This document shows positions 5,467 to 22,531 of a stretch of DNA of 22,531 nt, piece by piece. The first letter of the stretch is position 1; each line of letters opens with the position of its first letter. A model generated the notes under the pieces. The model did no database searches. It was not told where the DNA came from and saw nothing but the letters and a program-made list of their open reading frames with translations. The stretch is from a virus (taxonomy: Duplodnaviria; Heunggongvirae; Uroviricota; Caudoviricetes), in the IMG/VR virus record IMGVR_UViG_2778261509_000018; one strand, 5' to 3'. Made by a program: the position numbers and the translations under genes.

Positions 5467-5520
5467 GATGGGGGTACTTATGGGGGTATTTGCTGTTCGG
5501 TTTAGTGGAGGTACCCCCAA

Positions 5521-8644: not shown

Positions 8645-8819
8645 GCCGACAGGAACACCACAACCTCAAAAACGCTACAAAGATGCCCACGGAGCACTCG
8701 TTACTGTCGAAAGCGTGTCTCACAACCGAGTGACGTTTTATCGCGACGGGTATCAATCGCCATGCGTACAACCGCTGGCGCGTTTCATGAAGGAGTTCGC
8801 GGAGGTTAACAAATGCTAA
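8637..8819 (+). CDS. Small hypothetical protein (60 aa)
   Basis: ATG overlaps the upstream stop (AATGTTTAA); the longer upstream extension in the ORF track is in a different frame from the preceding gene and is unlikely to be used. Confidence 0.35.
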   Translation: MFKPTGTPQPQKRYKDAHGALVTVESVSHNRVTFYRDGYQSPCVQPLARFMKEFAEVNKC

Positions 8820-9841
8820 CCGTCCAGAAGAAGACATTTTCACTGGCTGGTATGTCGCCAAAATCCAGCAATATGACAGCAAAGTCAGGCATTAATACAG
8901 CAGATACAAGCAAAGTTTATCATTTGCTGGTGGTAGGAGCGGATGCCTTAACTATGTCAGAAATTACGGTCGATGGTGTTAGCGTTGAGAAGGTCAGCGG
9001 CTGCGCCAGAGAATTTCTGGTCGTAGATCACCTGTTCTGCTCGTGTAGTGACTCCACAAAAACATTCGTCCACGTGCGTGACGTTAACGAAATGAGCGCG
9101 ATGTATTGTGCATCTGGTGCTTCCAATAGTGAGTTTTCGGAGTCCATAAAAAAGAGCTTGCCGTTATGCGGCAACACGGTTTATGGTTATAAGGCACCTC
9201 ATAAAACGGGTGCCGGGATTAGGACCCCGCAGGCAATCGAGGCGATACATGACGCGCCAGCGTCTTTTTTTGTATCGGCGCACACGCACACCTTATCAAT
9301 GGTGGGCTGTATGGGGCTGACTTCGGTCAGGCTGGTTTCCTTGATTGCCAGTAGTCCTAACCCTGTACAGTCCACCGCCAGCGAGCTTAGGACCTCCGGC
9401 GGTGGCTATAAACCATCAATCAAGGAGGCTGCCACATGCTGGCTACTACCCCTACCCAAAAACCGCAATTTATCTGGATTATCGCCGCAGTTCGCCGCGA
9501 TTGCCCGACAATTACCGCCAAAATTCATCATATTGCTGCCGAGTCTGAACGCGATGCTCGCCGTTCTCTGGTGCGCGATCACGTCTGCTTTTTTGCTGGT
9601 CGTATCCGCATGGAGGTGGCACATGATTAAAACCTACGATGTGCATATGGATCCCCTCGAACGCACAAGCCAGATCATCACACTGACAGAAGTGATTAAC
9701 GACATTCTGGTGAGCAACTCTCCCTCACGAGACGAAAGGCTGAAGGCGTTACTCGCGATATTGGATCTCGCCGTTCGTGACGTTCATTTCCTGCTGGAAG
9801 GTGGACAAATGCCAGTAAAAACGGGGGCAACCAATGAATAA
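8813..9841 (+). CDS. Uncertain long ORF (342 aa, Cys/Ser-rich); possibly two genes read through (8813 to about 9430, and 9623-9841, 72 aa)
   Basis: Open frame with ATG overlapping the previous stop (ATGCTAA); completely overlaps the Icd-like ORF in another frame; internal ATG at 9623 overlaps the Icd-like stop (ATGATTAA). Confidence 0.25.
9436..9630 (+). CDS. Host cell division inhibitor Icd-like small protein (64 aa)
   Basis: Strong Shine-Dalgarno AAGGAGG at 9422-9428, 7 nt before the ATG; sequence ([17 protein letters not shown]...) resembles Icd-like proteins of P4-like elements as I recall them. Confidence 0.4.
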   Translation: MLATTPTQKPQFIWIIAAVRRDCPTITAKIHHIAAESERDARRSLVRDHVCFFAGRIRMEVAHD

Positions 9842-13494: not shown

Positions 13495-13598
13495 ACCTGT
13501 ACCACCTATACCACTTTGCTAATTCAGTATTAAAAACAATGTGTTATAGTGGTACAGGTCAATATCTTACCTATACCAGACCTGTACCACCTATACCA
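13495..13598. repeat. Iteron cluster 1: repeated CCTRTACCA 9-mers (within ACCTGTACCACCTATACCA units) in both orientations; candidate replication origin
   Basis: Direct units at 13495-13513 and 13580-13598, a partial unit at 13568-13578, and an inverted TGGTACAGGT at 13550-13559; immediately 3' of the primase-helicase gene. Confidence 0.5.
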
Positions 13599-14599: not shown

Positions 14600-14605
14600 A
14601 TAAAT

Positions 14606-14709
14606 GGTACAGGTCTGTACAGGTGGGGAGAGGTCATTTTTACCCACCTGTACCACCTGCAGGCCGCGCTACACAAGGGTTTGTGACATGGTGGTACAGG
14701 TGGTACAGC
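14606..14709. repeat. Iteron cluster 2: TGGTACAGG / CCTGTACCA copies in both orientations
   Basis: TGGTACAGG at 14606-14614, CTGTACAGG at 14617-14625, CCTGTACCA at 14648-14656, tandem TGGTACAGG-TGGTACAG at 14693-14709; same 9-mer family as cluster 1, about 1.05 kb away. Confidence 0.5.
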
Positions 14710-15201: not shown

Positions 15202-15375
15202 ATGGCTATTTCAGTAAAGCCAGTATTGATAAGTGAGAAGCAAATGGAAGCGATAAAGAAAATTCAGGAGGAGCAGCGTAAAAAATCAGAGGTAGGAGTT
15301 GCGCCAACGATCCACGAAATTGCTCGGGGATTAATGGATAAGGCGCTGGCTTACACTTTAACTGGACGTGGGTAA
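15202..15375 (+). CDS. Small hypothetical protein (57 aa), first gene of the cargo operon
   Basis: Not in the ORF track (below its size cutoff); AAGGGGA Shine-Dalgarno 5 nt upstream of the ATG; its stop is 4 nt before the next start; possible small DNA-binding or regulatory protein. Confidence 0.4.
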   Translation: MAISVKPVLISEKQMEAIKKIQEEQRKKSEVGVAPTIHEIARGLMDKALAYTLTGRG

Positions 15376-15379
15376 ATTT

Positions 15380-16846
15380 ATGGCTACTTGGCAACAAGGA
15401 ATCAACTCAGGCGGTTTTCTGGCTGGCATCGGTACGCAAAACGAGAATGCGCCAAAGGCAAGCGACATTAACGCAACGCTTGGTCTGATCCGCGAAAACA
15501 ATGAACTGGCTCGCTCAGGTGCAAATAACGTTGCTCTGACAGGTCTTCGTGGTCTGGCTGGAGTTGCTGATATTTATAAGCAGCAGCAACAGCAGGAGCG
15601 TAAAGCGGCATTCCAGAAAGGTTATGCAGATGCTTATGCGTCCGGTGACAGGGAGCAGATGCGTAATCTTATTACAGCATTCCCAGAAGAGTTTGAGGAA
15701 GTCCGTAAAGGGATGAGTTATGTCGATGATGCTCAAAGGGATGATTATGGCAATCTGGCGCTCAAAGCACAGGTAGCCTCATCGCTTGGTCCGGGCGCAT
15801 TTGGCAGGTTCATGATGGATAATGAGCAGGAGATGCGTCGTTTAGGTATCCCTCCAGAAACTATTGCTGAAATGCAGGTTAATGACCCGCAGGGCTTCCA
15901 GCATTTCGCAGGTAATCTGGCGCTGTTTTCTCTCGGTCATGAGAAGTATTTCGATATCAAAGATCAAATGGAAGGTCGGGATATTGAGCGTGGCAAGTTG
16001 GCAGAGACAATCCGCAGCAATCAGGCTGGCGAAGCACTTCAGGCGAGAGGGCAGGATATTAGCCGAGCAAATGCGTTAACGTCAGCATATGCACCAACAG
16101 CAGCAATGCAGAATTACAATCAGTACGCGCAAATGTTAAAGGCGGATCCAGAGGGGGCGGCGGCATTTGCGGCAGCGGCTGGAATTAATACAAACGCCAA
16201 AAAATTAATGAGTGTTAGAGAAAACGATGATGGCACTGTCACAAAATACTACACAGACGGAAGTGAAGAGCAGGGAAAACTAAACCAGCCAATATCTGGA
16301 GATGGGTTTCGTCCAATAGCTTTGCCAACAGCCCAAAAGATCATGGAAAAGTCGCCAGAAGGGGCTAAAAAAGCTGCTGGATTTGCATACAGGGTTAGGG
16401 ATGCTCTTGATTCAATAGATACACTGAAAGACCAGCTTAGCCCACAGCGAGTGGCGATCATTAATAATGCTTTGGGTAATGGGACGCTGGCTAACTTAAC
16501 GCTCAGCCCAGCAGAGCAGCAATACGTTGTTAATGCTAATGACGCAATAATGGCAATACTCCGTCAGGAAACAGGGGCATCTATCCTACCAGCTGAAATG
16601 TCCAAATATTATCAAATGTATTTCCCTCAGCCTGGTGATTCCACAAAAACCATTGATACCAAGCGCCGGAAGATGGAAAACCAGTTCAATTCGCTGAAAG
16701 CTGCTTCTGGTCGAACTTATGATGCTTTGCGGGTTATTTCAGCAGTTGACAGAGGAACTGCTTCTTCGTCGCAGACATTGCCGCAATCTGAGCAGGTATC
16801 ACAGCCAGCAGCCAGCAGTAACTTTTCTTCACTATGGGGTGATTAA
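15380..16846 (+). CDS. Hypothetical Ala/Gln-rich protein (488 aa)
   Basis: Long ORF, start taken at the ATG at 15380 (the track's GTG at 15368 is less likely); stop overlaps the next start (TAATG); composition suggests a largely helical protein; no enzymatic motif recognised. Confidence 0.7.
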   Translation: MATWQQGINSGGFLAGIGTQNENAPKASDINATLGLIRENNELARSGANNVALTGLRGLAGVADIYKQQQQQERKAAFQKGYADAYASGDREQMRNLITAFPEEFEEVRKGMSYVDDAQRDDYGNLALKAQVASSLGPGAFGRFMMDNEQEMRRLGIPPETIAEMQVNDPQGFQHFAGNLALFSLGHEKYFDIKDQMEGRDIERGKLAETIRSNQAGEALQARGQDISRANALTSAYAPTAAMQNYNQYAQMLKADPEGAAAFAAAAGINTNAKKLMSVRENDDGTVTKYYTDGSEEQGKLNQPISGDGFRPIALPTAQKIMEKSPEGAKKAAGFAYRVRDALDSIDTLKDQLSPQRVAIINNALGNGTLANLTLSPAEQQYVVNANDAIMAILRQETGASILPAEMSKYYQMYFPQPGDSTKTIDTKRRKMENQFNSLKAASGRTYDALRVISAVDRGTASSSQTLPQSEQVSQPAASSNFSSLWGD

Positions 16847-18951
16847 TGGCTAAAGCATGGAAAGATGTTATCGCCTCTCCACAGTATCAGGCGTTAGCAC
16901 CAGAACAAAAAGCGCAGGCTCAGGAGCAATACTTCAATGAAGTCGTTGCCCCGAAAGCCGGAGAAAGTGTAGAGCAGGCTAAGCAGGCTTTTTATGCTGC
17001 CTATCCACTACCATCAACGAATGCAATAGACCGATCCCAATCAGCAACTCAAAATATTCAACATACATCATCTGATAATTCTCTTGCGTCAGGGTATGCA
17101 AAGTTAGCTACTCAGCAAAGAGAGGGGCTTGAGCGTTCAGCAGAACAGGGAGCCAGTCTTGGGGCTGCGATGCGCGATGCTATAACAGGCGAAAGCCGAA
17201 TGACTCCAGAGATGGAGAGACTGCAAAATGTCGCCTCTGCCCCAGAATTGAACTCACTAAGCATGGATGCCCTAAAGGCTGGATGGTCTCAACTTTTCGG
17301 CTCTGACGCGTCTCAGGAAAAGATTCTTCAGGGAATGGGGGCGACATTAAGGCAGGATGAGAAGGGGAATACTATCGTTTCTCTGCCATCAGGTGATTAT
17401 GCCCTGAACAAGCCGGGTTTATCACCGCAAGACCTGACCTCGTTTCTTGCTAATGCGTTGGCGTTTACACCAGCGGGCAGGGCCGGAACGGTGCTGGGGG
17501 CCATAGGAAAATCAGCAGCTACAGATTTAGCACTACAGGGAGCCACCAGCCTTGCTGGTGGAGAAGATATTGATCCGTTACAAACGGTAATTTCTGCTGG
17601 CATTGGTGGTATTGGTAAGGGGCTGGAAAATACAGCGAGTGCGGTTTCGAGGGCTGTTCGTGGTGATATGTCGCCTGAAGCAAAGGCTGCTGTCGACTTT
17701 GCATCGGAAAGAAATCTGCCGTTAATGACCAGTGACATGCTGAAAGATAAAACCTTTATGCAGAGTCAGGCTCAGACATTAGGCGAAAGAGTTCCTTTTT
17801 TTGGAACCGGTAAGAATCGGCTGAATCAACAACAAGCACGAGAAAATTTAGTCAGAACATTTAGCGATGGTCTGGGTGGCATTTCTGATAAACAGCTTTA
17901 TGAATCTGCGACTAAAGGGCAACAAAAATTCATTGAGGCAGCAGGAAAGCGATATAACCGCATAATTGACGCTATGGGGGATACCCCTGTCGATCTCTCA
18001 AACACGGTAAAAGCTATCGACAATCAGATTGCCGTGTTAAGCCGCCCGGGCAAATCTCAGGATAGAGCCGCGGTAAAAGTCTTGCAGCAATTTAAAGACG
18101 ATATCACCAGCGGACCAAATGACCTGCGTCTGGCGAGGGAAAACAGAACCGATCTTCGAAAGCGATTTATGGCGTCATCTGACACTGTTGATAAAGATAC
18201 GCTCCAGAAAGCCAGCGATATTATCTACAAGGCATATACGGCGGATATGAAAAAAGCCGTAGCCAAAAATCTTGGAGCAGACGAAGCCATTAATATGGCA
18301 AGGGTTGATCGCTCATGGTCTAAATTCAATGACATGATGGGAAGAACGCGCGTTCAAAAGGCAATAGCCAGCGGCAAGGCCACGCCTGAGGATGTAACAA
18401 AACTCGTTTTTAGCCAAAGCCCATCAGAACGTTCTCAGCTTTACAGGCTTCTGGATGACAATGGTAGGCAAAACGCACGAGCAGCCATAGTTCAGAATGC
18501 TGTAGATAAGGCGACTGATCCGTCTGGAAATATCAGTGTTGAGAAGTTTATTAATGCGTTACACCGGAACAGGAAGCAATCAGCAACTTTCTTTAAAGGC
18601 GTACATGGAAAGGAACTGGACGGCGTTATTAAATACCTCAACGATACAAGACACGCGGCAAAAGCGAACGTTCAAAACTTAAATGGTCAGCAGCTTTATG
18701 GATTGTTAGTTGGTGGTGGCATCATAAACGCAGCAGTATTAGCGGGGATGCTAAAAACGGCTGCGTTTGTTGTTCCTGCTGCTGGTGCCGTAGGCGGAGC
18801 AGCGAAGGCATACGAAAGCCCTGTTATACGAAATGCCTTGTTACGTCTGGCAAATACGCCAAAAGGTAGCACAGCATATGACAGAGCGATCAGTACGGTC
18901 ACACAATCGCTCACCAGAGTCGCACAGGCATCACAAAAAGAATCTCAATAA
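16846..18951 (+). CDS. Hypothetical Ala/Gly-rich protein (701 aa) with a C-terminal glycine-zipper hydrophobic hairpin; candidate membrane-inserting effector
   Basis: C-terminal segment LYGLLVGGGIINAAVLAGMLKTAAFVVPAAGAVGGAAKAY is about 37 mostly apolar residues with a central Lys, about 45 residues from the C-terminus; the rest is hydrophilic and A/Q/G-rich. Confidence 0.7.
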   Translation: MAKAWKDVIASPQYQALAPEQKAQAQEQYFNEVVAPKAGESVEQAKQAFYAAYPLPSTNAIDRSQSATQNIQHTSSDNSLASGYAKLATQQREGLERSAEQGASLGAAMRDAITGESRMTPEMERLQNVASAPELNSLSMDALKAGWSQLFGSDASQEKILQGMGATLRQDEKGNTIVSLPSGDYALNKPGLSPQDLTSFLANALAFTPAGRAGTVLGAIGKSAATDLALQGATSLAGGEDIDPLQTVISAGIGGIGKGLENTASAVSRAVRGDMSPEAKAAVDFASERNLPLMTSDMLKDKTFMQSQAQTLGERVPFFGTGKNRLNQQQARENLVRTFSDGLGGISDKQLYESATKGQQKFIEAAGKRYNRIIDAMGDTPVDLSNTVKAIDNQIAVLSRPGKSQDRAAVKVLQQFKDDITSGPNDLRLARENRTDLRKRFMASSDTVDKDTLQKASDIIYKAYTADMKKAVAKNLGADEAINMARVDRSWSKFNDMMGRTRVQKAIASGKATPEDVTKLVFSQSPSERSQLYRLLDDNGRQNARAAIVQNAVDKATDPSGNISVEKFINALHRNRKQSATFFKGVHGKELDGVIKYLNDTRHAAKANVQNLNGQQLYGLLVGGGIINAAVLAGMLKTAAFVVPAAGAVGGAAKAYESPVIRNALLRLANTPKGSTAYDRAISTVTQSLTRVAQASQKESQ

Positions 18952-18969: not shown

Positions 18970-19389
18970 CTAATTTTTGTTCTTTGCTCTCATCCATAGG
19001 TAAAGAAGGGAAAGAACAAGACAAAAAACAGAGAATAGATAACCTACCTCATATGGTGCGCCAAAAAAATTAGCTATTGATACGGGCAAAAAAGCTGAAG
19101 CGATCAAAATTGAAAGGCAAAAAATAAGCCCAGTAATATAGTTTATTAAATTCTTAAATGAGAAACGTTTTGCTTGATTTACGGTCTTAACGAACGATCG
19201 CTTAACGACGGATAAAAGCAAATAGATGGCGACAGTTGCTAATGCCCCTTTCCACCAGTCTGGATATAGTTTTGCGACAATCAGACCAAGTAAAACCATG
19301 ATGACAGCCTGAGCATTCACACCAACCCTCCCTTTAGCTTTGTTTAGAATGGCAATCATCATATATCCAAGACATGGCATTTGGTACAT
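18970..19389 (-). CDS. Small polytopic inner-membrane protein (139 aa, 3-4 predicted TM helices); immunity-like candidate
   Basis: Four hydrophobic stretches (AQAVIMVLLGLIVAKL, ALATVAIYLLLSVV, ITGLIFCLSILIASAFLPVSIANFF, YLFSVFCLVLSLLYLWM); AT-rich; convergent with the 701-aa gene, 19 bp downstream of it. Confidence 0.55.
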   Translation of the reverse strand: MYQMPCLGYMMIAILNKAKGRVGVNAQAVIMVLLGLIVAKLYPDWWKGALATVAIYLLLSVVKRSFVKTVNQAKRFSFKNLINYITGLIFCLSILIASAFLPVSIANFFGAPYEVGYLFSVFCLVLSLLYLWMRAKNKN

Positions 19390-19435
19390 AGCTTGGGTCG
19401 GGATTTCAAATCCGCTCCCAGTTGATGGGGCCGTT

Positions 19436-19830
19436 ACAGTACGCGCATATCCGCTTTATGTGAAACAGGAAGATTTTTCTGATATCACTGCCACAGCAAA
19501 ACACCAATTTCGAGACAAGTACGCGCGCGAGGGGTATCAGTTGCAAAAAATTTTGCAACTACGTCCGACCAGTACGCGCACGATGGAGGGGAGTACCATA
19601 AAACTGTTCTCTACATAAGTCAGAGTAGTGGTGATGTGTTGATTATCGGCGTATATGCGCACAGGACGCGCTATGACGATGTTTTATGCGGGTACACCAA
19701 TCACATGTATCTGGTGTGATAAATCGCGTTACATGACCTCTCATGTTGTGCTGGTGGTTATCACGACTTTCTGAATCTGGCCTTTGCCTGATATTTTGCG
19801 ACAAGTACGCGCGCGTAGCATCGAAATTAT
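19436..19830. repeat. Cluster of AGTACGCGC(GCG) GC-alternating palindromic repeats (copies at 19436, 19514, 19567, 19810)
   Basis: Shared core ATTTYG-N-GACAAGTACGCGCGCG at 19514-19529 and 19810-19830, containing the palindrome TACGCGCGCGTA; degenerate copies at 19436-19450 and 19567-19582; an 8-bp inverted repeat TTGCAAAA-AA-TTTTGCAA at 19541-19558 lies between copies. Confidence 0.45.
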
Positions 19831-19966
19831 CGGATGGCGTATGCTGCTGGCAATATGAAGACCGATAGTATTAACCGAAAAGCGATTAAGGAGTGCCAAC
19901 TTTTCAGTAGAGAAACTAGCCAGCATAGGAAAATGTAGAAATTACCCAATTAATAGGTAAAAGTTA

Positions 19967-20162
19967 TTGACACAGCCTGTAGTGGATAACGATATGAATA
20001 AAAACCACATATAGTGGTTTTTCGTGAGTGATGATAGTACCTATGTTAGTTTCCTAAGTAACTGTGCATTGACATGTGGATAACTTCGGATAGAGTTACA
20101 CTCAACTGAGCCCGGCCCCCTGGCTTTATCTTGTCTTAGATGAGAAATTGTTATGGCCGGGC
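19967..20162 (+). promoter_or_regulatory. Candidate promoter/leader region of the Abi gene: two TTGACA hexamers each followed by GTGGATAAC, plus a 5' leader inverted repeat
   Basis: TTGACA at 19967-19972 and 20069-20074; TGTGGATAA at 20075-20083 is the reverse complement of the DnaA-box consensus TTATCCACA; GCCCGGCC (20110-20117) pairs with GGCCGGGC (20155-20162). Confidence 0.3.
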
Positions 20163-20194
20163 CTTCTTGTATCTGGAGGTAGGAAACCTTTTGT

Positions 20195-21157
20195 ATGGCT
20201 GTTCCGGTTAAGGTTCATAAAGAATATGATGAACTTGTCGATTTATTGCTGTCTCGGGGTATGGATGTGCCAGATCGCGAACATGCTATCAAGAAAATCT
20301 CACAAGTAGGCTACTACCGATTATCAGGCTTTTGGTACCCCTGCCGAATCCCCCATATAACAACAGACAATATTAGAACCAGACTCGATCAGGTTCGTCC
20401 AGGTACTAATTTTCGCGCAGTATATGACCTCTATTTATTCGATAAAAATCTGCGTTTGCAGATGATGAATGCGTTAGAACGCATTGAGGTTTATGTTCGG
20501 TCAGTTATTGCTCATGAGCTTGGTAAGATATCTCCTTTAGCATATCTTGATGACTCGCTAATAAATCCAAAACACTTTAGACCACGTTCCCATGGTCGCC
20601 CAAGCGCCAGAGAAGAATGGATAAATAAACATAATGCCGAGATTGCTAAAAGTCGCGAAGACTTTATCAAATGGCATGAAAACAAGTACGAAGGTCTTCC
20701 TTTCTGGGTGGTTATTGAAGTGTGGGACTTCGGCTTAATGTCAAAGTATTATGCGATGCTAAAAGACAGCTATCGCAACAGGATACTATCTAGGCTAGGG
20801 ATAGCGGCAGGCAATGGAGCTATCTTCCAAAACTGGCTTAGCGCAATGAATGTGCTAAGGAATCGGTGCGCTCACCATTCACGCATCTGGAACAAGGTCA
20901 ACGAACCAAGATTAATGCCTTTGCCAAATGAGCCGTACTTTGAACAATTAAATATGAATGATGATGCGTACGAAAGAATGTACGGAATGATCGCTGTGTT
21001 ATGGTTTTTAGTGAAAAAAATTGGACCGGGATCTGACTGGATAAAAAAAGTTGCCAACCTTGTAGATAACAAGCCTAACTTACCAGGATGTAACCTGACA
21101 GCCATGGGATTACCTGATAATAACGGTTTCCCAAGGCATTTATTTGATATTGAATAA
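20195..21157 (+). CDS. Abortive infection protein, Abi_2 (AbiD/AbiF-like) family
   Basis: N-terminal ELVDLLLSRGM...YYRLSGFWYP and the signature LRNRCAHHSRIWN are characteristic of AbiD/AbiF-type Abi proteins as I recall them; 320 aa. Confidence 0.85.
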   Translation: MAVPVKVHKEYDELVDLLLSRGMDVPDREHAIKKISQVGYYRLSGFWYPCRIPHITTDNIRTRLDQVRPGTNFRAVYDLYLFDKNLRLQMMNALERIEVYVRSVIAHELGKISPLAYLDDSLINPKHFRPRSHGRPSAREEWINKHNAEIAKSREDFIKWHENKYEGLPFWVVIEVWDFGLMSKYYAMLKDSYRNRILSRLGIAAGNGAIFQNWLSAMNVLRNRCAHHSRIWNKVNEPRLMPLPNEPYFEQLNMNDDAYERMYGMIAVLWFLVKKIGPGSDWIKKVANLVDNKPNLPGCNLTAMGLPDNNGFPRHLFDIE

Positions 21158-21158
21158 A

Positions 21159-21614
21159 TTATAGCGATGGCGCTGAATGTAGCGCCACTGATAACTTTTC
21201 AGCATTGCTTCCCTGACGCTTCCACGCGCTGTAAATATCTTTATCCCATGCCTTACCAGCTTTTGTTTGATAGCCTGCTTCATTGATCCGTTCAGCTATC
21301 ACGCGCCCATTATCAAATCCCTGTCGGATGGTATCGGCAATGATCTTTATAACTGCCGTTTCGTTATATGGCTTTGGTGGGATGTTCGGCTTTCCGGCAA
21401 TAAGCGACGCAGCGGCTTTTTCCATGCGCTCCACCAGCCCAAGCATTCGTGAATCAATAGACTTTTCCGGCTGTCCCAGCTTCATGCGAATCGCATCAAC
21501 AAGCCAGGAGGTTTTATCCCCTCCAGAAGCGAGAACAGACCGATTAAACTCATCCTGCAATTCAGATGGGATGCGGAACGCGACCAGATTAGATTTGCTC
21601 ATTGCAAAGACCAT
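21159..21614 (-). CDS. Putative DNA-binding protein with an N-terminal ribbon-helix-helix (Arc/CopG-like) segment (151 aa)
   Basis: N-terminus SKSNLVAFRIPSELQDEFNRSVLASGGDKTSWLVDAI has the beta-strand plus two-helix pattern of RHH repressors; its stop is 1 nt from the Abi stop (convergent); alternative start at 21602. Confidence 0.55.
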   Translation of the reverse strand: MVFAMSKSNLVAFRIPSELQDEFNRSVLASGGDKTSWLVDAIRMKLGQPEKSIDSRMLGLVERMEKAAASLIAGKPNIPPKPYNETAVIKIIADTIRQGFDNGRVIAERINEAGYQTKAGKAWDKDIYSAWKRQGSNAEKLSVALHSAPSL

Positions 21615-21631
21615 ATCAGTGAGTAATATCC

Positions 21632-21662
21632 ATACAGTATACCACTGTATAACACTGTTATA
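21632..21662. promoter_or_regulatory. Two adjacent perfect palindromes (ATACAGT-N5-ACTGTAT and TATAACA-C-TGTTATA) in the divergent promoter region; candidate operators
   Basis: Seen directly at 21632-21650 and 21648-21662, between the divergent starts at 21614 (-) and 21767 (+). Confidence 0.4.
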
Positions 21663-21766
21663 CGCTCAAATATCAGCCAGAAAATAACGGACCAATCACA
21701 AAGCTATCGCTGTGTTGTTGGTTCAGAGCTGGGCTGTGTTGGTTCAAAATAATCTGAGAGGCAGAA

Positions 21767-22048
21767 ATGATAAGGGACAGGAAAGCTGAAGAGCTGGAGT
21801 CAAAAGGGCTATACCGGAGAGCTGCCGCACGATGGATGGAAGTCATGCTGTTATGCACCGAGGACGATGATCGGGAATGGATAAAGCGCCGCCGTGAAAC
21901 GTGTCTGGAGAACGTGAAGCGCCCGCCCGTGAAGGTTGAGGACTTTGGCGACCTGCATAAAGCTGTTACCGAAACGCAACACCGCATGGGGATAGCGCAA
22001 CCGAACGGTAACGCCTTCCGGTTAAATGGCGGCAAGAGGCAAAGGTAG
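21767..22048 (+). CDS. PerC-family transcriptional regulator-like protein (93 aa)
   Basis: KGLYRRAAARWMEVM...REWIKRRRETCL resembles the PerC/Pch signature (GLWRRAA.RW) as I recall it; hairpin CCAGAGG-N8-CCTCTGG at 22052-22073 follows the stop. Confidence 0.45.
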   Translation: MIRDRKAEELESKGLYRRAAARWMEVMLLCTEDDDREWIKRRRETCLENVKRPPVKVEDFGDLHKAVTETQHRMGIAQPNGNAFRLNGGKRQR

Positions 22049-22096
22049 ACCACCAGAGGGAAATCATCCTCTGGCTGGCGGTTTCTGGTATTTCGG

Positions 22097-22120
22097 GACA
22101 AGTACGCGCGCGCGTAGCAC
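22097..22120. repeat. Fifth copy of the GACAAGTACGCGCGCG palindromic repeat (contains TACGCGCGCGCGTA)
   Basis: Same core and same upstream context (ATTTCGGGACAAGTACGCGCGCGCGTAGCAC) as the copies at 19514 and 19810; same orientation. Confidence 0.45.
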
Positions 22121-22345
22121 CCAATCGGTGAGGAAATAGCGGCGACCTGAATGGTCAAAATCACAACGCAGCTATCCCCGTAAGCAGCGCTTAACGGAAT
22201 AGCAGTAACCTGAATCCAGTGGGGAGGGGGTAGTCAAATCTCTACAGCCCTGACTATCCGGGACTGCCCGCCCCATCGTTTTTTTATACCCGCGAAAAAT
22301 GAAATTTAATCCGGGCGTGTTTCATCCTTCCAGAGGGTATGACGT

Positions 22346-22531
22346 ATGACACCACGCGAAATAGCCTTATTGACCATCGCCAAACTTGAGCACGGAGGCC
22401 ACCAGCTTACACAGGCAGATCAACGGGAGATAGAACGATCAGTTAATGCCGATATAGCCCGGCGCGACAGGTTCCGCGAAATGATGCGAGCACCTGCCTA
22501 CCAGTGGAAGAAGCCAGCGCCGCGCAGGTAG
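22346..22531 (+). CDS. Small hypothetical protein (61 aa); stop codon is the last three bases of the window
   Basis: ORF with basic C-terminus; no motif recognised. Confidence 0.35.
   Translation: MTPREIALLTIAKLEHGGHQLTQADQREIERSVNADIARRDRFREMMRAPAYQWKKPAPRR

Follow-up and report, generated by a model that had tools for sequence, protein, structure and literature searches.

Dispersed iteron-like repeats beside the accessory slot of a putative phage-inducible chromosomal island

Introduction

It is not yet understood how defence genes are swapped so rapidly in the fixed slots of phage satellites. A recent survey of satellite defence hotspots found no transposons at these sites and left the mechanism of the swap unresolved (PMC13586616). 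The viral record IMGVR_UViG_2778261509_000018, a stretch of 22,531 nucleotides which we call the window, raises this question in a concrete form, with a defined repeat at the edge of such a slot. Judged from its sequence, the window is an EcCIMP1-like phage-inducible chromosomal island (PICI) at tRNA-Thr. Towards its right end, copies of a short motif surround an Abi gene, a gene of 151 amino acids and a PerC family gene. A first-pass annotation proposed that these copies are a cassette boundary, a recombination site or a shared set of operators. What are these repeats, and what do they do?

The repeats are genuine members of an undescribed, island-specific family of iteron-like repeats. The reading that we favour, with a probability of about 0.5, is that they are dispersed non-coding repeats of one PICI lineage, which would serve as patches of homology at this locus and which may ancestrally have been protein-binding sites.

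Repeat copies in the window

The 9-mer AGTACGCGC has six matches in the window, all on the plus strand (16122, 19438, 19518, 19571, 19804 and 22101), where 0.10 are expected, and none of 100 dinucleotide-preserving shuffles reaches six. The five copies first described are thus real, and the match at 16122, which sits within an ejection-protein gene, is a sixth. The 16-mer GACAAGTACGCGCGCG is exact at 19514 (copy A), 19800 (copy B) and 22097 (copy C), and has two mismatches at 19567 (copy D). Three copies had been credited with a 23-nt core and a palindrome. The core ATTTYGNGACAAGTACGCGCGCG is indeed common to A, B and C, but A has no palindrome, and those of B (TACGCGCGCGTA, 12 nt) and C (TACGCGCGCGCGTA, 14 nt) differ in length. 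The conserved portion is the left part of the motif and not the palindrome or dyad. The consensus across islands is TTTYGNGACMAGTACGCGCRCG.

The similarity between B and C extends over about 45 nt (19777-19820 and 22075-22119), with a score of 45 against 17.1 +/- 1.9 in shuffles. The 16-mer of B is invariant in 11 distinct variants, and in certain genomes copy C has four CG units rather than five. The C element begins directly 3' of a 7-bp hairpin (22053-22074) that follows the stop codon of the PerC gene.

A position-weight matrix (PWM) was made from 12 copies, five of them from the window (A, B, C, D and the copy at 19438, E). In a scan with this matrix C scores 36.5, A 34.8, B 33.2 and D 21.3 against a shuffle maximum of 19.2, these values being partly circular because all four copies are in the training set. 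No other copy exceeds every shuffle. The copies at 19438 (7.6) and 16122 (9.0) have only the 9-mer in common with the motif. The spacings between successive copies from E to C, 80, 53, 233 and 2297 nt, are irregular, in contrast to a clustered regularly interspaced short palindromic repeat (CRISPR) array. Sigma-70, LexA and sigma-54 readings of the motif by eye, together with a promoter and terminator scan, gave nothing above background.

The anatomy of the region comes from aligning it with about 20 related islands. A conserved block between two variable slots contains copies E, A, D and B (Table 1), and this block is 93-98% identical across islands with different flanks. It is not coding, because its variants have frameshifting indels and stop-codon changes, and RefSeq annotates no coding sequence in it. 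The open reading frame (ORF) 19340-19618 was considered as a source of coding repeats; it has no Pfam, PHROG or phage tblastn match and is frameshifted in variants. Between A and D there is an inverted repeat whose arms are conserved and whose centre is variable (AA, CT, TT or A; 1-2 nt) in 11 variants, which looks like the signature of a functional dyad or hairpin.

Distribution of the motif

A 66-nt query around copy C has a match in 567 of 5426 complete E. coli genomes (~10%), at a median of two places per genome. No match is on a plasmid or under an annotated gene, all have a single orientation and all are within these islands. The genome-wide search proposed with the first-pass annotation therefore shows the motif to be confined to one PICI lineage and no generic E. 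coli repeat. Blastn did not find it in 50,697 phage records, although the bare 16-mer is below blastn detection. In viral and metagenome collections the motif occurs in a few fixed contexts, which come from related islands. The 22-mer is also present in about eight contexts from soil and ocean metagenomes; their flanks are unrelated, and we judged these to be chance or coding matches. A scan of the 16-mer over 185,579 species genomes returned, among the matches listed, only chance ones in high-GC organisms. Identical 22-mers are present in at least five unrelated island contexts (A, B, C, and islands of types L021 and L254), all on the gene-sense strand.

In related islands same-strand arrays of three to five copies occur directly upstream of the isrK/c4-a1b1/C4 RNAs, which are the immunity RNAs of the islands. 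Locus L225 has five copies within 450 nt at this place, and L279, an island which lacks the block, PerC and copy C, has three. L021-type and L254-type islands have one copy at the isrK/C4 locus. A second element, in the form AGGAAGRTTTTTCTGAYATCACT, alternates with the motif in the L225 and L279 arrays and is also found in the window at 19467-19489. This element is identical to L225 1593-1615 at 21/23 positions (score 36 against 17.9 +/- 1.8 in shuffles) and to L279 7625-7645 at 20/21. Where copies fall in one open frame they are read in different codon phases (VTVRA, FRDKYAR and PTSTR), which points to conservation at the DNA level. Two other interpretations were tried and rejected. The block is not a decayed paralog of the entire isrK/C4 region, as no more than the motif and the second element can be aligned. 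A mimic of the P22 pac site at 19469-19490 (15/22 matches) is put down to chance, shuffled windows yield 1.4 such sites.

The accessory slot and the B/C hybrid allele

Copies B and C do bracket exactly the Abi gene, the 151-amino acid gene and the PerC gene, as first described (Table 1). The labels given to these genes stand for Abi (Pfam and PADLOC) and PerC (Pfam), and fall for the 151-amino acid gene, called ribbon-helix-helix (RHH)-like, which matches no family. Copy C is in frame past the TAG stop of the PerC gene; read-through was rejected, the Pfam profile being already covered at positions 1-85 of 90.

The genes between B and C are not fixed. In L038-type islands a 353-nt segment with a gene of 73 amino acids stands in place of the Abi cassette and the 151-amino acid gene is kept. 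Elsewhere slot 2 holds other cargo, an AlpA_1-type gene with a 72-amino acid ORF among it, or nothing. The left breakpoint is at 19824/5, 9 nt past the 16-mer of B, in at least six loci, and in others at 19860-19880 or 20113. The right breakpoint is at 21192-21212, or at 21749, which is 18 nt 5' of the PerC start. From 21749 onward the sequence (PerC, C and downstream) is constant within one subfamily. PerC and C thus appear to be a separate constant module, and the segment from B to C is not one cassette. The spacing between B and C falls into classes of 0, 1282, 1390-1408, 1743-1754, 2297 and 2420 nt.

The link drawn earlier between the repeats and the Abi module has not survived: copies A and B are also present alongside other cargo, arrays occur at another locus, and the repeats follow the island backbone.

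An empty site with a single copy of the repeat had been predicted. A synthetic junction query, made of the left flank of B and the right flank of C, was searched in the 5426 E. coli genomes and is present as a contiguous match (97.6% identical) in one, NZ_OZ547150.1. This genome has the block, one hybrid copy (ctggcctttgcctgatattttgcGACAAGTACGCGCACGCGTAGCACCCAATCGG) and then directly the 61-amino acid ORF; Abi, the 151-amino acid gene and PerC are absent. Either recombination has joined B and C or the two were at one time a single copy, and there is no sign of a dedicated cassette system. The notion of a cassette boundary or recombination site accordingly holds in part: the left edge of the cargo is at B and one hybrid exists, whereas the right edge is mostly elsewhere and no recombinase accompanies the slot. 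RefSeq annotates none from 18951 to the island end, the only integrase being that of tRNA-Thr, 13 kb away, and there are no recombinase genes in the variant cargo examined.

Table 1. Features of the right-hand part of the window (coordinates are window positions)
Feature	Position	Strand	Description
Variable slot 1	18970-19389	-	minus-strand ORF; differs between islands
Conserved non-coding block	19395..19877	.	contains E, A, D and B; between variable slots 1 and 2
Copy E	19436..19446	+	bare 9-mer AGTACGCGC (19438-19446), weak or decayed; differs between island variants
Second repeat element	19467..19489	+	AGGAAGATTTTTCTGATATCACT; alternating form in related arrays AGGAAGRTTTTTCTGAYATCACT
Copy A	19507..19529	+	ATTTCGAGACAAGTACGCGCGCG; some islands differ (GACCAG.., ..GCGTGCG)
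Inverted repeat	19540..19559	.	GTTGCAAAA-AA-TTTTGCAAC, between A and D
Copy D	19567..19582	+	GACCAGTACGCGCACG, 2 mismatches; more decayed in other variants, e.g. GTATGCACACG
Copy B element	19777..19824	+	16-mer 19800-19815; ~45 nt in common with C
Abi cassette, by comparison	19825..21191	+	exchanged for other cargo between islands
terS fragment	19827..19870	+	decayed, ES18-like (Terminase_2), ~codons 25-38; blastn E 2e-3
Abi_2/AbiD gene	20195..21157	+	Pfam E 3.6e-52; PADLOC AbiD E 2.7e-57
151-amino acid gene	21159..21614	-	ORF; no Pfam or PADLOC family; 'RHH-like' in the first-pass annotation
PerC family gene	21767..22048	+	Pfam PerC E 1.7e-30, profile positions 1-85 of 90
Copy C element	22075..22119	+	16-mer 22097-22112; five CG units
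Putative cos-like packaging site	22216..22319	+	~100 nt 3' of C
61-amino acid ORF	22346..22531	+	in the place of a terS or rpp gene after cos; no known family

A role for the repeats

We hypothesise that the repeats, as direct repeats of 23-45 nt, act as short homology patches. Copies E, A, D and B would be a decayed array at the left edge of the accessory or defence slot, and C, after PerC, would stand about 100 nt upstream of the cos-like site. At the repeats, the accessory segment would then be deleted or swapped by homologous recombination of the host or of a phage. The primary role of the repeats may ancestrally have been as binding sites for a sequence-specific DNA-binding protein of the island or of a helper phage; the identical cores in unrelated flanks and the arrays beside immunity RNAs suggest such a role.

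Several observations weigh against this hypothesis. No binding protein for the motif was identified, and none of the copies in the window has a constant spacing to a promoter. Between variants, copies A, D and E change at about the rate of their flanks, which gives no sign of purifying selection on the repeats at the block locus. Most of the right-hand cargo junctions (those at 21192-21212 and 21749) are not at a repeat. The B/C hybrid is present in only one of ~630 motif-bearing genomes, where the single-copy state could be ancestral rather than a deletion, and the reciprocal junction, the left flank of C joined to the right flank of B, is in 0 of 5426 genomes. Deletion hybrids between A and B or between A and C were not found.

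A far stronger version of the hypothesis seems improbable to us. In this version the 22-mer would be read by a dedicated island or helper protein, would gate the isrK/C4 immunity switch through the arrays and would mark both the defence slot and cos, as a satellite-wide code, cis-regulatory or for recombination, directing cargo exchange. A set of operator or activator sites is unlikely, but has points in its favour. One regulator (AlpA, AlpA_1, PerC, the RHH-like protein or the 61-amino acid protein) would control Abi, PerC and the cos-proximal genes, the iteron-like pattern of DNA-level conservation fits such sites, and in related islands the proximal copy of the array ends ~34 nt upstream of the isrK promoter -35. 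However, there is no copy near the alpA promoter or the other promoters of the window, and Abi has a promoter-like site of its own (20069-20096), ~250 nt 3' of B and inside the swappable cassette; these two points leave the shared operators first proposed without support. In addition the palindromes of B and C differ by 2 bp, and the block is found beside different PerC alleles, in islands that have no PerC (L210), and where the RHH-like gene or alpA_1 is missing. The repeats could also be neutral remnants of packaging genes that have decayed, such as terS fragments that encode F-R-D-K-Y-A-R, and play no part today. B adjoins a terS pseudogene fragment, the 16-mer GACAAGTACGCGCGCG encodes DKYARA within small terminase genes of unrelated phages, and pseudogene debris is reportedly typical of satellite defence hotspots (PMC13586616). 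This too we consider improbable, since the flanks of A, B and C have no TerS similarity, TerS of the ES18 type lacks the peptide, and perfect 22-mers in five contexts, with arrays in different codon phases, are unlike decaying coding fragments.

Site-specific recombination is harder still to sustain. The direct repeats B and C around cargo, the single-copy empty site of NZ_OZ547150.1 and the junction 9 nt past the motif in several loci are all compatible with att-like core sites for integron-like capture and excision of cassettes, but this is very unlikely given that the only integrase annotated in the island is that of tRNA-Thr, whose att core TCCTATTATC is unrelated to the motif. The absence of the reciprocal (circular-cassette) junction, the mostly distant right-hand junctions, the lack of a recombinase in the examined cargo and the lack of a predicted hairpin also argue against it. 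A structured RNA element, or target sites for an antisense RNA on the island transcript, would agree with the sense-strand location of all copies and with the position of the related arrays next to isrK/C4. We think this highly improbable: there is no Rfam 15 match at E up to 5 in 19300-22531, nor over the L225 and L279 arrays, fold z-scores are between -1.5 and +1.7 on both strands, and no sequence complementary to the motif at three or fewer mismatches occurs anywhere in the window. Least credible are iterons of a replication origin, in a bipartite arrangement like the ori/crr of satellite phage P4. The repeats are on the same strand in two clusters, with an AT-rich inverted repeat between A and D, but a different set (ACCTRTACCA) is already present at the primase gene (13495-13598, with a second set at 14605-14708), and the block remains 96-97% identical across islands with unrelated helicase halves (DUF5906 and DUF927), whose primase-helicases have just the N-terminal 350 amino acids in common.

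Comparison with known systems

The arrangement resembles that of known accessory and defence hotspots of satellites (P4 psu-int, PICI accessory regions and EcCIMP1; PMC11773190), in which unrelated cargo is likewise swapped in a fixed slot on near-identical backbones. Here the cargo is Abi, an AlpA_1/Xis-like gene, a small membrane protein or nothing, and pseudogene debris lies near, as in the hotspots surveyed in PMC13586616. The described hotspots have conserved genes as their edges, whereas the left edge here is a non-coding block with a short repeat that recurs across the slot. No such repeat has been reported for EcCIMP1 (PMC11773190).

Repeats of similar form are known from other elements. 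The iterons of plasmids, P4 and PICIs are also same-strand repeats of 17-22 nt with irregular spacing and variable copy number, but the iterons at the replication origin of this island differ in sequence from the motif, which does not co-vary with helicase type. Short 'boundary' or 'linker' sequences at the module edges of lambdoid phages can guide homologous exchange at mosaic junctions (HK620/HK97), these are single homologies between genomes. In contrast, the motif has several copies in a single element, also occurs in arrays at another locus, and has a 22-nt core far better conserved than its flanks. Repeats recognised by terminases (the lambda cosB R sites, the P1 pac hexamers and the SPP1 pac boxes; PMC9026076) adjoin packaging signals, as B and C do. 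C is however on the cosQ side and not the cosB side, and the related arrays are far from cos.

Repetitive extragenic palindromic elements and bacterial interspersed mosaic elements (REP/BIME), and enterobacterial repetitive intergenic consensus (ERIC) sequences, are likewise short GC-rich non-coding repeats. REP/BIME are present chromosome-wide in hundreds of copies with a stable hairpin, whereas the motif has 2-3 copies per genome in one island family and no predicted hairpin, in agreement with the first-pass annotation, which had not recognised it as REP/BIME. The repeats also differ from the attI/attC sites of integrons, being direct repeats with neither RYYYAAC...GTTRRRY boxes nor a predicted hairpin, and without an adjacent IntI-type integrase. 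A duplication of att sites of the Campbell type would agree with the hybrid single-copy site, but not with the missing reciprocal junction (0/5426) or the absence of any additional annotated recombinase.

The repeat at the slot edge, the natural hybrid allele and the arrays by immunity RNAs offer a concrete experimental handle on cargo exchange. Should the repeat prove to be only passively recombining debris the result would be an ordinary one, yet it would explain one route of cargo loss.

The flanks of B and C

The terS fragment 3' of B has blastn matches in the 5' part of terS from ES18, SPN3UB and others. In L003-type islands (L003 10310-10420) the fragment, once corrected for its frameshift, agrees with ES18 TerS at 20/40 residues (pairwise E 3e-9). 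The remnant suggests that the ancestral island had its own terS at this position. We tried the B element itself as the 5' end of terS; its translation has no Terminase_2 or PHROG match and the ES18 alignment begins only at codon 26. A secondary att site was also considered on account of the 8-mer ATTATCGG, in common with the att core, this is part of the terS fragment and reads ATAATCGG in other variants. A search of the sequence 5' of terS in ES18-like phages did not find the motif, nor did one near cos in the lambdoid prophages (two helper-type prophage loci examined).

In lambdoid prophages, the intergenic region that separates the HNH endonuclease gene from the P27-family small terminase gene is 85-87% identical to the segment 22216-22319, with ~60 nt aligned without gaps. 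Matches to the segment are present in roughly 1,900 E. coli genomes. We infer that the segment is cos-like because it resembles this intergenic region, which we take to be the place of the cos site in HK97-type phages. It suggests cos-type packaging by HK97-type helpers. Helper-like cos sites are known from E. coli PICIs (PMC6092414, PMC9026076). For EcCIMP1, however, the helper that has been published is a P22-like headful phage, and the island has no reported cos site (PMC11773190). Between C and the cos-like site there is a direct repeat, AATAGCGGCGACCTGAATGG (22135-22154) and AATAGCAGTAACCTGAATCC (22199-22218), with its two copies 64 nt apart.

A 72-amino acid paralog of the 61-amino acid ORF (69% nucleotide identity), also without known family, is present 5' of PerC in L003-type (EcCIMP1-type) islands (L003 11257-11475). 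Since the two ORFs are paralogous, the unit from B to the 72-amino acid ORF and the unit from C to the 61-amino acid ORF are collinear.

Other features of the island

The whole window is 100% identical to E. coli NZ_CP062855.1. The island is inserted at tRNA-Thr, with proA on one side and pao/yagU on the other. The att core TCCTATTATC is duplicated at both ends, attL being the 3' end of tRNA-Thr and attR at L001 24750, and the same att core is found in EcCIMP1 (PMC11773190). EcCIMP1 is a PICI mobilised by the P22-like phage Kapi1 (PMC11773190), and its helper-dependent excision and transfer have been demonstrated experimentally (Pick et al. 2025, PMC11773190). A further sequence, ATGGGGGTACTT(A/T)TGGGGGTAT, is repeated near attL (L001 6470-6495, window ~5469-5494) and near attR (L001 24665-24690), the latter copy falling beyond the right end of the window. 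Both copies are probably integrase binding sites of the arm type.

The gene order is integrase, AlpA-like regulator, AntA/B, an 'Ash' region, primase-helicase and two P22-type ejection-protein genes, followed by the repeat region. Pfam finds AntA, Toprim/DUF5906, Inj_translocase and PerC in the island, and neither Pfam nor the RefSeq annotation gives it capsid or terminase genes. The ejection (injectosome) protein genes at 15368-18951 (Inj_translocase, E 7e-85) are related to those of P22-like and APSE phages; such cargo is unusual in a satellite. A second related island elsewhere in the genome (NZ_CP062855.1 107487-108247) has the same block and an Abi-type right flank.

In one locus from the viral collection (L031 9244 onward, corresponding to window 19586) an IS66-family element is inserted 4 nt past copy D. 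In L021-type islands the sequence directly after the motif starts with GTAAGCGT, which resembles the terminal GTAAGCGTAAACTGACC of this insert, the likeness may be a coincidence.

The region 13495-13598, immediately after the primase gene, has five direct copies of ACCTRTACCA, with further inverted ones, around an AT-rich core, and is the probable replication origin; the second ACCTRTACCA cluster, at 14605-14708, follows a 245-amino acid ORF.

The ORF 8813-9841 is annotated as an ash family protein. Within it, at 9194-9382, Rfam places isrK (63 bits) immediately beside C4 antisense RNA (80 bits). Read by eye, the C4 loop UUUCCUUGAUUG is complementary to the ribosome-binding region of a 64-amino acid ORF which starts at 9436. 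The Pfam Phage_ASH profile maps exactly on the isrK/C4 genes (ORF residues 124-219), the 'Ash protein family' may therefore be largely the translation of RNA genes.

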